A stretch of 64,000 nucleotides of DNA from Candidatus Aenigmatarchaeota archaeon (lineage in GTDB: Archaea > Aenigmatarchaeota > Aenigmatarchaeia > GW2011-AR5): contig JAWCLW010000001.1 in NCBI GenBank assembly GCA_039091535.1, positions 145,073-209,072 of the forward strand, read 5' to 3'. Every line of letters starts with the position of its first letter. Within the stretch, counting starts at the first letter, position 1. The translations under genes and the position numbers were made by a program. The notes under the pieces are model-generated. The model was given only the letters and a program-made list of their open reading frames with translations. It did not search any database and was not told the origin of the DNA. This document shows positions 8,101 through 64,000 of the stretch, in pieces.

Positions 8101-9055
8101 CATCTGCTGTTATTGGTGATGTTATAAATAATTTTGCCTCGGCTGATTCATCTGGCTTTAATCTAAATGAATTTTGATCAAACTCTGCTTCCCAATTCTT
8201 AGGTACAACTGCTGTAAGTGTTATTGTGCTTGGATCAAAATCAGGAGGGTCATTGTTTATAACTTTTACAGTATACATTAACATTTGACCAGGAGAGCCA
8301 TCTAGAGTTTTTGGATTTATTTCAACAGAAGGTGGTCCTCTTGATGCAATAACATATTCTGCACTAATCTTATCAAAAATATTAAGTTCTTGTGAAAATG
8401 CTACAAATGTTATAGTATAAGATCCATCAGACTCTGTTAAATTTGAGGTTACTGTGAATGTAACATCTTTCTTAGAATTTGCTGACATCTGCAAATCTTT
8501 TTGTAAATTGTATGTCCATCCTTTTGGAACTTCTAAACCAAGTTTTAATGTAATTGATTTTGGATGCTTATTTTCTAGAGTAACTTTATAGTTTACTGTT
8601 TTCCCAGCAATTGTTGTTTGTGTTTTTGGTGTTATATCTGTTATAAAGTTTTTCTTTGTGAATACATTGAATTTTAATATCACATGTGGCTCATTTATCT
8701 CTAATTGCATTGCTGAACAATCTGGTGTGCATTTTTTACATTCGGCAGAATTTCCAAGAGATTCACATGTATTTTCGCAATATGCTATTCCAGCAGGACA
8801 CGATGCAGTTGTTGTTCCACATGATATACAATTAGAATATTCTGTATTGCAATTTCCAAATATATCACACTCTGTTTTTGTATCACATATCTGATTTCCT
8901 TGACATCCACGTCCTGTGAATGTCAATTGTGCATACACAAAAGGAATTATTAATACAGACACAAGTATAATTAAAAAAGATATAAAAATAATATTTTTTC
9001 TAATTAATTTGTTAAAATTGCATCTTTTATATTTCATATCAATCACATTCACCAA
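5165..9055 (-). CDS. giant secreted Cys-rich surface protein with C-terminal membrane anchor
   Basis: 1296 aa with an N-terminal signal (..LIILVSVLIIPFVYA-QL) and about 70 Cys by hand count. It has CGNGICEVDENCEKDC and CGDNIVDQNEKCELPN motifs and CARDB/NEW3-like beta-sandwich stretches (TVNYKVTLENKHPKSITLKLGLEVPKGW..). N-x-S/T sequons are abundant. The C-terminal TM is MIILIIIIIIIVAVLF followed by a charged tail. The start could instead be the ATG at 9037. Confidence 0.85.
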   Translation of the reverse strand: MVNVIDMKYKRCNFNKLIRKNIIFISFLIILVSVLIIPFVYAQLTFTGRGCQGNQICDTKTECDIFGNCNTEYSNCISCGTTTASCPAGIAYCENTCESLGNSAECKKCTPDCSAMQLEINEPHVILKFNVFTKKNFITDITPKTQTTIAGKTVNYKVTLENKHPKSITLKLGLEVPKGWTYNLQKDLQMSANSKKDVTFTVTSNLTESDGSYTITFVAFSQELNIFDKISAEYVIASRGPPSVEINPKTLDGSPGQMLMYTVKVINNDPPDFDPSTITLTAVVPKNWEAEFDQNSFRLKPDESAEAKLFITSPITADESSYSIIVNATANKLSSLAYAEYKINLCGNGICEVDENCEKDCLSEQYFLCDGRCEKEVDDGVEFSANLDFMFTKFIVCSRNATIQNCEAYFNKNNCGYGKPCLCGGDDKSLCLMRCVDHKGAYYLYAKNEYNVRSTSNYSFSCPYVNLPEIIQIRNNFTNAKVNYEKAQSTLKEVMNKNATERTRLMPCYDILNIIIRNITNHISYLDAVIASPAKSNTTIARQKTDELRTRIESLYNKYCRGSAGLLKIESVNIPSAIERGNNIRANIFVKNIGNTNYYGYPECDFVDPSGQKTTVKERCMEMPVGFSKTFTLSSNATTDGNWKIMCRVYGSLESDCSTEIHDETDFYQINVYSKDVYVVDVSGQCESNSIKCSVRINKNLTCSKCKIGNTDCSFISQDGDASYFSCPKRGFGLFNLTGYVIQTDYCIPVLPKEKNITVSCSGCGDNIVDQNEKCELPNTNNNRNCIQQEWMCDGKKYAYRDKYGFCTPTCDCSFDEYKYVCSKGKCGALCSDGETKNKTIVTIDGKCTCVQQCNENCEWSDCYCEVQPKYITNVSVEILDVSVSNSCPEEKGYIDVMCTVSTPRVDCIKLKIGTNECVWNNYSYWYGNTAVFSNCAVGLKTNTQCGNQSREVKCYVDKTRCSQIGTDKITWIDVMPATKPNVTIPQCYIDIISKNCSFNPRINRYDATMRVIWNGGDHAHGKIEDEESKMMRTKEFKHTIQLGTPGMKKIEAYVHNPENKLICYNSTEIYCGAGPTIGNLFDVIREMKDTTRTGWIDVKLHIIPYITLSDFTLTEHVEKNLTVINRTVYGNTSAVISTGPSTVSLEKDYSAYSWKLDLESGKNVTISYKVGINKEGEYKFFSKSKYLNEVREEEKYLLVSNCHQIKTTWARNNLTGTCTSFKTPCDVPSFGWKIVPEGCPTEEGVTIIPKSTEEGFDFGMIILIIIIIIIVAVLFMKREVIKEKIEEWRYGKEEI

Positions 9056-61952: not shown

Positions 61953-64000
61953 TTAAACGCAAGGTTCATTAGTTTGTTTATAACTATTAAAACATATTTC
62001 ACAATCTTCTATACTCCAGACATCTGGGCAACATAAATTCAAATTTAATGTATTCGAATGTTTACAATAAATTTTAGATGTTCCAGAAGGTACTCTACAA
62101 CCACTTTGCCCAGGTTGACAACATTCATTATCATTTTTGCAATTACCTTGGCCTGTTAGGCATCCTATACCATTGATATTTTTCAATTCTTCGCAAAAAT
62201 CTTTATCATTAAATTGATTCAGAGGTGTTGTCTGTATTGTACCTTTAAGTTGCTTACATACTTCATTATATATCTTGATGTATTTTTCAGGGTATTTTGC
62301 ACCATAACCCTCTTCATAACAACATTTTTCTTTAGTTTTTTGACCTCCGCAATCTCCATATACGCCTTTCTCAAAAAATTCATAGCATGCATCACGCATA
62401 GCTATTATTAGATCTTTTCCTTCATTTCTAAGTTCAACAGCCCTTCTCATTGCTCCATTGCCCCTATTATATGAGAACAATGTGAATATCAATACCTCAT
62501 TATCACTTACACCCTGCTTTCTTACATCATTTAAATATTCATAAAATATCCTTGTTCCACAGTTAATATTTTTTTCAGAATCTCTAATTATCTCATCATA
62601 TGCTCCAATGTCCTTGCACATATCATTTGCTGTACCTTGAACTATCTGCATCAACCCATGACCACTAGTAGATTGGCTGCTCATACTACAGCTGCTTTCA
62701 CCGTATGAAAGCGTTAATAAAAATAATAAATCTATACCGCTTGCTTTTAGTCTATTTTGTTCCCAATATTTCTTGAATGTTTCAAAGTACTGTGCACATT
62801 TGCTCAACTTTGTGTCTGAAAGTTGTGAGGCATCTGTCACATCAACAGAGCATTTATATTCTAAAGGCTTTTCCTCACACCATCCGTCTGCATTTATTAT
62901 ATTAGCACCACCTTCTGCTACATGATATTTTTCTTTTTCTTCTTCTGTTAATCGATGCCATTGACATAATAATTCACAGCGTTCTGCCCCATACATGCAT
63001 TCATTTTCATCCTTACTAAACTGACTACAACCTCTTGTTTTGCTGCATGAATGGCATTCTCCACCAGTAACTATTCCCGGGCCAGAAACATCTCTAAACC
63101 AGCATTTATTACCTTTATTATCTTTGATTTTTTCACACTCTTTCTTATCACATTTATTTACCAAACTATCTCCACATTTCTTACATTCTCTTTCAAATGG
63201 GTCATAGAATATCCCAAGAGGTGTTGTGATCGGGACGTCCTTCTCTTTCTTTACAATAAATTCATATCCTGGATTTTCTTCTGTACCAAGCTGTGCTGTT
63301 ATTAAGCCGGTAACTGTAGGATTCTGAATATCATTAACATCAAATGAGCATAAAATAGCATATATTGAATTGAAATCATTTGGTTTTATTATTATTTCAT
63401 TTTCTATTGGATAATCGAGAACATATTTATCATCTTCTTCTATTGCTGTCCTACCGCCACAATTAAGATTTGAGCCAATAGATTTTGGAAGTGTTATTTT
63501 AATGAAATCATTAGTTCTCAATTTGATTTCGCCATCATCTCTTGTATTTGAGATGGATAATAATAGCAATGCATTTTTTGTTCCTGCTTTCAGTGGCTGT
63601 GGACCAACATTCAATGAAAGTTTTGCAGGTGTTGCCTTCTCTACAGCAAGCACAGGTCGAAAAACTTCTTTTCCTTCTTTGAATAATCTCTGTAATTCAT
63701 TCTCATTAATAACATCAACAAGCAATGAAGCAGAGGTGTAATATCTATAGCTAATTTCCAATTTTACCTTAGCCATCCTAAATTCTGCCTCACGACCAGG
63801 GACTGTTTTTGCAACAAGACCTGTGAATGTTATTGTCTCTGCTTCTTTTCTTTCTAGTTTAAGTTTATTTTCATTTTCATCTAAATACCAGAAATATTTA
63901 TTATCACCAGGTAATTTTTTGAAATTTCCTGTTGGTATTGCATCATTTGTATCACACCATTGATTACAAGAAATACCTATCTTAATTTCTTTTGCAGTCA
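61953..64000 (-). CDS. secreted multi-domain protein: beta-sandwich repeats + PSI-like Cys modules + GH23 lytic transglycosylase (SLT) domain + Cys-rich tail (5' end beyond window)
   Basis: By hand translation the frame stays open upstream of the track's ATG (63776) to the window edge (..ITFTGLVAKTVPGREAEFR-MAKVKLEISY..). The SLT core lies at ~62427..62759: LSYGESSCSMSSQSTSGHGLMQIVQGTANDM..NCGTRIFYEYL..FSYNRGNGAMRRAV, with the catalytic Glu codon at 62697..62699. Confidence 0.85.
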   Translation of the reverse strand, partial: TAKEIKIGISCNQWCDTNDAIPTGNFKKLPGDNKYFWYLDENENKLKLERKEAETITFTGLVAKTVPGREAEFRMAKVKLEISYRYYTSASLLVDVINENELQRLFKEGKEVFRPVLAVEKATPAKLSLNVGPQPLKAGTKNALLLLSISNTRDDGEIKLRTNDFIKITLPKSIGSNLNCGGRTAIEEDDKYVLDYPIENEIIIKPNDFNSIYAILCSFDVNDIQNPTVTGLITAQLGTEENPGYEFIVKKEKDVPITTPLGIFYDPFERECKKCGDSLVNKCDKKECEKIKDNKGNKCWFRDVSGPGIVTGGECHSCSKTRGCSQFSKDENECMYGAERCELLCQWHRLTEEEKEKYHVAEGGANIINADGWCEEKPLEYKCSVDVTDASQLSDTKLSKCAQYFETFKKYWEQNRLKASGIDLLFLLTLSYGESSCSMSSQSTSGHGLMQIVQGTANDMCKDIGAYDEIIRDSEKNINCGTRIFYEYLNDVRKQGVSDNEVLIFTLFSYNRGNGAMRRAVELRNEGKDLIIAMRDACYEFFEKGVYGDCGGQKTKEKCCYEEGYGAKYPEKYIKIYNEVCKQLKGTIQTTPLNQFNDKDFCEELKNINGIGCLTGQGNCKNDNECCQPGQSGCRVPSGTSKIYCKHSNTLNLNLCCPDVWSIEDCEICFNSYKQTNEPCV

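Follow-up and report, generated by a model that had tools for sequence, protein, structure and literature searches.

What use has an archaeon with a protein envelope for enzymes whose relatives cut bacterial cell walls? The question is raised by a 64,000-nucleotide stretch of a Candidatus Aenigmatarchaeota genome (assembly GCA_039091535.1, contig JAWCLW010000001.1, positions 145,073 to 209,072), hereafter called the window, which encodes an M23 metallo-endopeptidase and a large protein that ends in a GH23/SLT domain. A first-pass annotation made from the sequence alone had joined these two with an SH3b module and an NAGPA-like protein into a single distributed murein-targeting toolkit. The present analysis breaks this grouping up: it shows two separately conserved systems, both predicted to be envelope-anchored and to cut peptidoglycan, with two peripheral proteins beside them. 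The M23 gene lies within a type IV filament cluster, a position that the first-pass annotation had missed. Whether DPANN archaea live on bacteria or on other archaea has so far been argued from lytic transglycosylase genes alone; the window offers a module that links a wall cutter with intact catalytic residues to a pilus assembly machine, and a second carrier that exchanges wall-cutting domains. The coordinates of the features are collected in Table 1, and our handles L and P denote related loci and homologous proteins, respectively.

The M23 endopeptidase

The M23 protein, which NCBI names peptidoglycan DD-metalloendopeptidase family protein, carries a KG motif with a hydrophobic stretch at its N-terminus (aa 4-28). 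An alpha/beta N-domain and a C-terminal beta-domain rich in Cys flank the M23 domain itself, which spans aa 375-482 (nt 28971-29294) and matches PF01551 with E=2.6e-23 (82.5 bits, the cut-off being 28.7). In its AlphaFold2 (AF2) model (pLDDT 84, pTM 0.76), a 72-residue N-terminal helix (aa 7-78) precedes the globular domains. Foldseek searches with the whole model, dominated by the M23 domain, returned LytM (2b13, TM-score on the target (TMt) 0.80), lysostaphin (4qpb, 0.78) and EnpA (6smk, 0.80), as well as ShyA and PrgK (LytM domain); the N- and C-terminal domains were left unassigned. A search of 5.8 billion proteins turned up only 15 relatives of the protein at full length, and the overall identity among these homologues is only 34-48%. 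Across this deep divergence the zinc ligands and catalytic residues H377-K-G-I-D381 (HxxxD), H436 and H469-L-H471 (HxH) are invariant in 15 of 15, and for this reason the M23 domain is judged, by its residues, to be catalytically intact.

The same scaffold can be found with additional cargo. In the orthologues P0011 and P0014 an SLT domain is inserted between the N-domain and M23. In another homologue, P0006, the N-terminal domain holds an insertion of ~290 aa without a Pfam match, part of which resembles a glycoside hydrolase by eye. The scaffold thus seems to have more than one place in which a further module can be accommodated.

It could be postulated that these hydrolases are released weapons, that is, proteins shed or cleaved from the cell that act at a distance as bacteriocin-like lysins, in the manner of the haloarchaeal M23 hydrolases. 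Secreted archaeal M23 hydrolases indeed kill bacteria (Strock et al., PMC12352652), a precedent for any antibacterial role of the window protein, and the best NCBIfam match of the latter is NF052336, 'peptidoglycan hydrolase', though for the domain alone (71 bits, with the cut-off at 500). Nevertheless, Pfam finds M23 or SLT only, with no cell-wall-binding domain recognized on either hydrolase, and an N-terminal anchor stands in place of a cleavable Sec or Tat signal. Moreover, the genes are chromosomal and syntenic at all loci examined, whereas weaponised hydrolases are patchy and plasmid-biased. Release is, on this evidence, improbable.

A conserved type IV filament cluster around the M23 gene

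The M23 gene is the last of seven same-strand genes (21179-29696), every one of which encodes an N-terminal hydrophobic segment and the final four of which, M23 included, overlap one another. The run is preceded by the genes of a PilB/FlaI-type assembly ATPase, whose best NCBIfam match is FlaI (133 bits, under the equivalog cut-off), and of a PilC/FlaJ-type membrane platform that shares 62-78% identity with the T2SSF genes of L002 and L001. Between the two, on the opposite strand, sits the gene of a pilin with the archaellin/type IV pilin N-terminal domain (TIGR02537).

Archaeal prepilin-peptidase substrates carry a basic residue at position -2 and G or A at -1, and are cut N-terminal to the hydrophobic domain (PMC3387779, PMC6098224). 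Starts of this prepilin-like kind are found in the genes at 25348 and 26900 (MKG/V.. and MKG/Q.., respectively, the slash standing at the putative cut) and in two small proteins encoded downstream of M23, the N-terminal motif of both of which is kept in the orthologues of L001, L002, L003 and L089. Altogether, [KR]G-plus-hydrophobic N-termini are kept across the orthologues of five module proteins, M23 included, as MKG[VL][EQ]P, KGQ[FL]PEE, KG[VA]GTT (the M23 protein), KGI[SA][LI]AIE and KG[LM]ELP. Within the M23 family, the KG/VGTT-plus-hydrophobic motif is retained by 12 of the 13 homologues in which the N-terminus is present, with similar motifs in four neighbours.

Gene order was compared at every related locus that could be fetched, five besides the window (L001, L002, L003, L088 and L089), and proved to be colinear at all six. 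The common order comprises proteins of ~350, 510-560, 130-160, 265-390 and 275-320 aa, M23, a protein of ~110 aa, (Alba), a protein of 110-160 aa and FEN1. In the window, L002, L003, L088 and L089, the M23 gene starts before the gene upstream of it has ended.

This arrangement bears on the possibility that the enzymes serve nutrient scavenging, in which free peptidoglycan debris of dead bacteria would supply an auxotroph with amino sugars and peptides, with no attack and with the pilus uninvolved. That DPANN archaea scavenge cell components is a common prediction (PMC9723730, PMC10936187), and the intact catalytic domains, together with several more large surface proteins encoded in the window, would suit such a life. 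The enzymes appear to be anchored, however, and not freely secreted; at several loci translation of the M23 gene is coupled to that of pilin-like genes, a conserved filament context that diffusible substrates leave unexplained, and no muropeptide uptake or recycling genes were seen in the window. Scavenging is therefore regarded as rather unlikely, and an M23 enzyme used at the cell surface, in association with a filament, is the reading that we pursue.

Two further observations concern the module. Scans of metagenomes for more loci returned the L001 contig only. In addition, a coiled-coil gene pair abuts the pilin/M23 module in L001 (2747-4136) and L088 (3165-4330), and the window copy of the pair (11557-12655, minus strand) is separated from the module by ~9.6 kb, which hold the genes of a 306-aa protein, NAGPA, PilB, the pilin, PilC and a 290-aa protein. 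The NAGPA/PilB/PilC block is thus placed differently in the relatives, which indicates a rearrangement or insertion in the lineage of the window.

The GH23/SLT carrier

The second hydrolase is the C-terminal part of a large envelope protein. Its GH23/SLT domain (PF01464 E=2.5e-12, 46.8 bits against a cut-off of 21.3; nt 62415-62753) presents E360-S361, with the catalytic Glu, GLMQ at 374-377 and SYNRG at 435-439, the last being an AYNxG motif in which A is changed to S. The ES, GLMQ and (A/S)YNxG motifs also occur in P0121, P0128, P0011 and P0014, and as far as motifs can tell the domain is catalytically intact. Degenerate, non-catalytic modules, an outcome for which the first-pass annotation had allowed, are ruled out by the invariant catalytic residues and by the intact motifs of both M23 and GH23.

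The reading frame is open from the listed ATG (63776) to the end of the window, and the protein is longer than 681 aa, with its N-terminus off-window. All four modules had been placed on secreted or surface-anchored proteins; in the case of GH23 the export signal lies outside the window, and membrane anchoring is made likely by the homologues, which show transmembrane segments at their N-terminus in the family alignment. At L004, the upstream region forms a separate 918-aa open reading frame (ORF), whose multi-transmembrane end is found in P0128 and P0129 fused to the carrier, as their N-terminus.

The carrier module has been joined to various C-termini, including CHAP+SLT (P0128), glucosaminidase+Amidase_2 (P0127) and glucosaminidase+esterase (P0126), and SLT-like C-termini are also seen on it in P0121 and, by eye, in P0122 and P0124. 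Its homologues sit among archaeal housekeeping genes (Spt4, S24e, Rpb7 and Kae1).

A 595-aa NlpC/P60 protein (L005, 5790-7577, minus strand) adjoins the CHAP+SLT carrier P0128 on an archaeal contig, and from this neighbourhood it would follow that related genomes hold more types of wall hydrolase. The 388-aa paralogue encoded beside the GH23 gene in the window has no hydrolase domain, and syntenic homologues of it occur in L004 and L006.

Archaeal setting, substrate and origin

The base composition of the window (~30% GC) is even throughout its 64 kb, which contain no tRNA genes, and the GC content of the hydrolase genes agrees with that of the window. Pfam and NCBIfam scans of ~60 ORFs recovered an archaeal gene set that includes an aCPSF-type beta-CASP protein, a class I CCA-adding enzyme, FEN1, PTH2 and TruD. 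The archaeal ether-lipid head-group enzymes noted in the first pass were recovered as CDP-archaeol synthase (CarS) and two CDP-alcohol phosphatidyltransferases. Since archaeal marker genes are interleaved with the hydrolase genes on one contig, the contig is archaeal; its NCBI label is Candidatus Aenigmatarchaeota, a DPANN group.

Could the hydrolase genes nonetheless be mis-binned or chimeric DNA from bacteria or the Candidate Phyla Radiation (CPR), or a decaying transfer whose genes are being lost? The nearest M23 domains in the genome collection, among the matches listed, come from Bacillota, with up to 46% identity. On the other side stand the interleaved archaeal markers, the matching GC content, the invariant catalytic residues and the gene order found on six independent assemblies. 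Such conserved synteny argues against a recent island or mis-assembly, and contamination or chimerism in particular is ruled out by its recurrence on the six assemblies, with the result that an artefact or decaying transfer can hardly be credited. Genes resident in an archaeal lineage are thus what has to be explained. A bacterial origin of the modules, for which phylogenies had been proposed, was pursued for the M23 domain: in a neighbour-joining tree of 121 M23 domains, crude and with no real outgroup root, 16 family members fall within a clade of 19, which suggests one acquisition of M23 followed by spread within the lineage.

The classical archaeal S-layer protein of the earlier description was confirmed (Table 1) and, on the strength of its family matches, marks the envelope of the organism itself as proteinaceous. 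No Mur ligase, MraY, MurG or PBP (penicillin-binding protein) was found among the ~60 ORFs scanned in the 64-kb window, and the claim that murein biosynthesis genes are absent holds for these 64 kb of a 234-kb contig. As to the substrate, SLT, CHAP, Amidase_2, glucosaminidase and M23 share only peptidoglycan, in which they attack different bonds, and murein is hence the likely one; M23+SLT fusions (P0011, P0014) and C-terminal domain swapping (P0126-P0128) mark the relatives of both hydrolases. Because the archaeon is without evident murein, the target must be looked for outside the cell, and a foreign bacterial target is the best reading for M23 and GH23 alike. To this extent, the interaction with bacteria that had been put forward earlier is upheld.

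A challenge to this reading is a non-murein substrate, in which case the enzymes would remodel the cell's own envelope, for instance where a filament passes through the S-layer, or would cut the glycoprotein or pseudomurein wall of an archaeal host. The hosts of all DPANN archaea in cultivation are archaea themselves (PMC11291902). Moreover, bacterial filament and secretion operons often hold a wall hydrolase for self-assembly, such as PrgK, which is among the Foldseek matches of the M23 model. Some M23 enzymes also cleave Gly-rich proteins, which counts on the same side. Nevertheless, the exchange of SLT, CHAP, Amidase_2 and glucosaminidase domains, and the SLT+M23 fusions, make sense only if murein is the shared substrate, and the S-layer of the organism is protein. 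Pseudomurein, for its part, is built with beta-1,3 linkages of talosaminuronic acid and with isopeptide bridges of L-amino acids, and neither SLT nor M23 enzymes act on these. The pseudomurein-like walls that the first-pass annotation had offered as an alternative target were consequently rejected, and nothing found points to them. A substrate other than murein is given a low probability, and bacterial murein is retained as the target in what follows.

A proposed mechanism for contact-dependent wall cutting

In the mechanism proposed here, the first system would be made up of the PilB/FlaI-type ATPase, the PilC platform, a major pilin and a prepilin-like set bearing the M23 endopeptidase. The M23 protein would be processed or handled like a minor pilin, or at least be anchored by its long N-terminal helix, and, held on the cell surface or on a short filament, it would sever peptide cross-links in the wall of a bacterium upon contact. 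In the second system, a GH23/SLT domain at the C-terminus of a large protein anchored in the membrane would cut the glycan strand. When the cell touches a bacterium, be it host, prey or competitor, the two systems together would breach its wall. That the anchored M23 and GH23 enzymes act on bacterial walls upon contact has, in our estimation from the sequences, slightly better than even odds. It is a clearly more tentative proposal that the M23 protein forms part of the filament proper, in the manner of a pilin. Likewise possible, though to be held with reserve, is the wider idea that a DPANN lineage has built a murein hydrolase (M23, in some cases M23+SLT) into its minor-pilin set, which would give rise to an enzyme-tipped filament or pseudopilus capable of breaching bacterial walls.

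Several observations weigh against this mechanism. The M23 N-terminus has no TIGR02537 match even at E<=1, the N-domain has no pilin match among the Foldseek matches shown, and much the same sequence would be expected of an ordinary signal anchor with a positive-inside lysine. No prepilin peptidase (PibD/EppA) is encoded among the window ORFs scanned; it may be encoded elsewhere in the genome. The PilC gene of L001 is found ~9 kb from the module on the other strand, and contig ends hide PilB and PilC at three loci. When the genome collection was scanned with the alignment of the full M23 protein, bacterial M23 genes crowded the result, with no family member among the matches listed. Finally, the analysis covered 64 kb of the genome, and the cell might make murein-like polymers of its own.

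The consequences differ widely with the outcome. Should the enzymes cut bacterial sacculi and the cell treat the M23 protein as it does a pilin, a mechanism by which attachment or predation crosses domains would be at hand, together with a marker gene set for spotting such archaea in metagenomes. An enzyme-tipped filament would furthermore constitute molecular evidence for the episymbiosis or predation of an archaeon on bacteria and a new functional class of type IV filament. If this is not true, the window represents a further case of peptidoglycan hydrolases in DPANN genomes, which are already documented.

The SH3b and NAGPA-like proteins and other neighbouring genes

Table 1. Positions in the window of the hydrolases, the filament cluster and other features named in the text.
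Feature	Position	Strand	Remarks
Cys-rich surface protein, 792 aa	9049..11427	-	putative divergent SH3_3-type domain; QXD48_00985, hypothetical protein in NCBI
NAGPA/DUF2233-like protein, 304 aa	13885..14799	+	PF09992; twin-arginine-like N-terminus TRREFIK
PilB/FlaI-type assembly ATPase	15721..17976	+	Pfam T2SSE 51.9 bits vs 24.9
Archaeal type IV pilin	18012..18461	-	MKG/ISPLIAAVLLIAF...; TIGR02537 31.1 bits vs cut-off 20
PilC/FlaJ-type membrane platform	18640..20643	+	Pfam T2SSF 26.8 bits vs 25.2, two stretches
Six co-directional genes	21179-22051, 22300-23361, 23590-25278, 25348-25761, 25761-26924, 26900-27859	+	upstream of M23
M23 metallo-endopeptidase, 615 aa	27849..29696	+	PF01551; NCBI MEM7819404.1
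Small prepilin-like protein	30225-30554	+	MKG/ISLAIE; downstream of M23
Small prepilin-like protein	31129-31521	+	MKG/LELPIS; downstream of M23
S-layer protein	47950..50556	-	PF05124 E=1e-27; TIGR01564 66.5 bits vs cut-off 25
Lipoprotein-like paralogue (...VSGC), 388 aa	59877..61043	-	19% identity to the N-terminal module of the GH23 protein
Large envelope protein, C-terminal 681+ aa	61953..64000	-	'LSLNVGPQPL' module, Cys-rich linker, GH23/SLT

The four modules of the first-pass annotation fared unequally. M23, GH23 and NAGPA pass their Pfam thresholds where it had located them, and SH3b does not: in the 792-aa protein SH3_3 (PF08239) scores 12 bits (E=0.25) against a threshold of 27. However, when aa 80-190 were searched with phmmer, 304 of 1.84 billion representatives matched at E<=1e-3, typically with 3-7 stretches per protein, and in 10 of the 10 top matches scanned 4-6 tandem SH3_3 domains (E 1e-34 to 1e-56) underlie the matched stretch, some of these proteins also carrying Amidase_2 or NlpC/P60. 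The best match to this segment among PDB sequences, an SH3_3-type surface protein, is marginal (E=0.42), and a single-sequence AF2 model has a pLDDT of 46.5, too low for the fold to be read. Through this transitive homology to tandem SH3_3 proteins, a putative divergent SH3_3-type domain is accepted at aa ~92-152 (nt 10972-11154). The segment is missing from P0131, the only homologue of the carrier protein, and it would accordingly represent a lineage-specific insertion. The 792-aa protein has an N-terminal hydrophobic segment; a neighbouring gene, with which its own overlaps, encodes a 1296-aa surface protein anchored at the C-terminus. The 792-aa protein is at best a candidate adhesin, to whose adhesion the SH3b segment may contribute; a link to murein is hypothetical.

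The NAGPA domain matches PF09992 with E=2.9e-17 (63.8 bits against a cut-off of 25), with only marginal matches of the protein to PDB sequences. All modules had been said to have relatives that act on or bind cell-wall polymers, which does not apply to this one: the characterised relative is the lysosomal uncovering enzyme, which acts on N-acetylglucosamine-1-phospho-mannose (GlcNAc-1-P-Man) of lysosomal enzymes, and the family is reported to have an invariant sugar-phosphate loop, DGGGS (PMC13474241). The loop reads DGGSS in cyanobacterial Slr0280 and DGGYE in the window, DGG being kept in both, and due to this alteration the activity of the window protein is uncertain. No murein role for the family was found in the literature searched, and the protein is probably peripheral and unrelated to murein. 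Directly upstream, in the same direction, lies the gene of a secreted 306-aa protein (12905-13825, plus strand) with no Pfam or NCBIfam match and marginal PDB matches only; the pair also occurs on Logan contig L007.

Further observations concern the remaining genes. The exported proteins at 4728-5360, 5165-9055, 22300-23361, 30225-30554 and 55655-55987 contain 5.6-10% Cys with CxxC-like spacing, and a high Cys content is shared by the small pilin-like proteins and by the carrier of GH23 (5.9% Cys). Two genes are unrelated to the hydrolases: one encodes a radical SAM protein with an HMPTM-type zinc ribbon (34364-36019, plus strand), syntenic in L001, and the other a PHP-like 408-aa protein (57427-58653, plus strand), homologous to an L004 gene with a Pfam MJ0043_C match.

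Comparison with known systems

Wall hydrolases associated with bacterial machines are the closest analogues, among them PrgK of pCF10 (LytM+SLT+CHAP), VirB1, BfpH and R64 PilT. Like those of the PrgK type, the window M23 enzyme is encoded within a filament or secretion operon, as a membrane-anchored M23/LytM and/or SLT (CHAP) protein. The bacterial enzymes open the producer's own wall for assembly of the machine, and that machine is of the VirB4/VirD4 type, whereas the one in the window is of the archaeal PilB/PilC type. Lysostaphin, to which the first-pass annotation had compared the combination of M23 and SH3b, shares M23 family and fold with the window enzyme. The analogy goes no further: in the window M23 and SH3b belong to separate proteins, whose genes are ~17 kb distant from each other and lie on different strands, the SH3b segment is confined to one of two homologues, and it is SH3_3-like, the SH3b of lysostaphin being of the SH3_5 type.

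Among the archaea, AR20 of Castelle 2015 is reportedly to be grouped with the GH23/SLT large envelope proteins of DPANN archaea. DPANN genomes with GH23 genes have been described repeatedly, with bacterial hosts or prey suggested (PMC8204110, PMC9723730, PMC10936187). The proteins of Castelle 2021 (PMC8204110) and Vigneron 2022 (PMC9723730) agree with the window carrier in having SLT on a large envelope-exposed protein of a small-genome DPANN archaeon, and were read by their authors as binding and degrading bacterial walls. In contrast to these, the window organism is labelled Aenigmatarchaeota and the carrier family swaps its C-terminus for CHAP, Amidase_2, glucosaminidase or esterase. It has also been reported that a DPANN order with type IV pili has an extracellular lysostaphin-like M23B enzyme (PMC8561730).

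Woldo, the haloarchaeal M23 hydrolase of Strock et al. 2025 (PMC12352652), resembles the window enzyme in its bacterial-origin M23 domain, its murein-less archaeal bearer, its conserved catalytic residues and its predicted extracellular location. Woldo is secreted, combines M23 with two PG_binding_1 domains and has a patchy, plasmid-biased distribution, whereas the window M23 has a prepilin-like anchor, no binding domain and a place in a conserved chromosomal module. According to the same study, ~5% of archaeal genomes, prominently in Nanoarchaeota, carry modular peptidoglycan hydrolases. The window hydrolases are not modular in that sense, catalytic plus binding domain, and since the survey required a recognised binding domain it would miss them (PMC12352652).

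An archaeal parallel for non-pilin proteins with a prepilin-type N-terminus is the bindosome of Sulfolobus, where sugar-binding proteins are processed by the pilin signal peptidase and are thought to form a pilus-like structure whose function needs homologues of pilus-biosynthesis genes (PMC3387779). A dedicated PilB/PilC-like pair is common to both systems; the Sulfolobus cargo consists of sugar-binding proteins for uptake, not of hydrolases, and for the window M23 prepilin processing is only predicted. That archaea attack or attach to bacteria is an already published idea (PMC8204110, PMC9723730, PMC12352652), and the interaction foreseen by the first-pass annotation is in this respect not new. 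Within the searchable library, no published link between an archaeal filament operon and an M23 or SLT gene was found, and the pilus-coupled M23 (±SLT) module appears to be undescribed so far. It is this conserved module, together with the domain-swapping GH23 carrier, that the window adds to the systems compared here.

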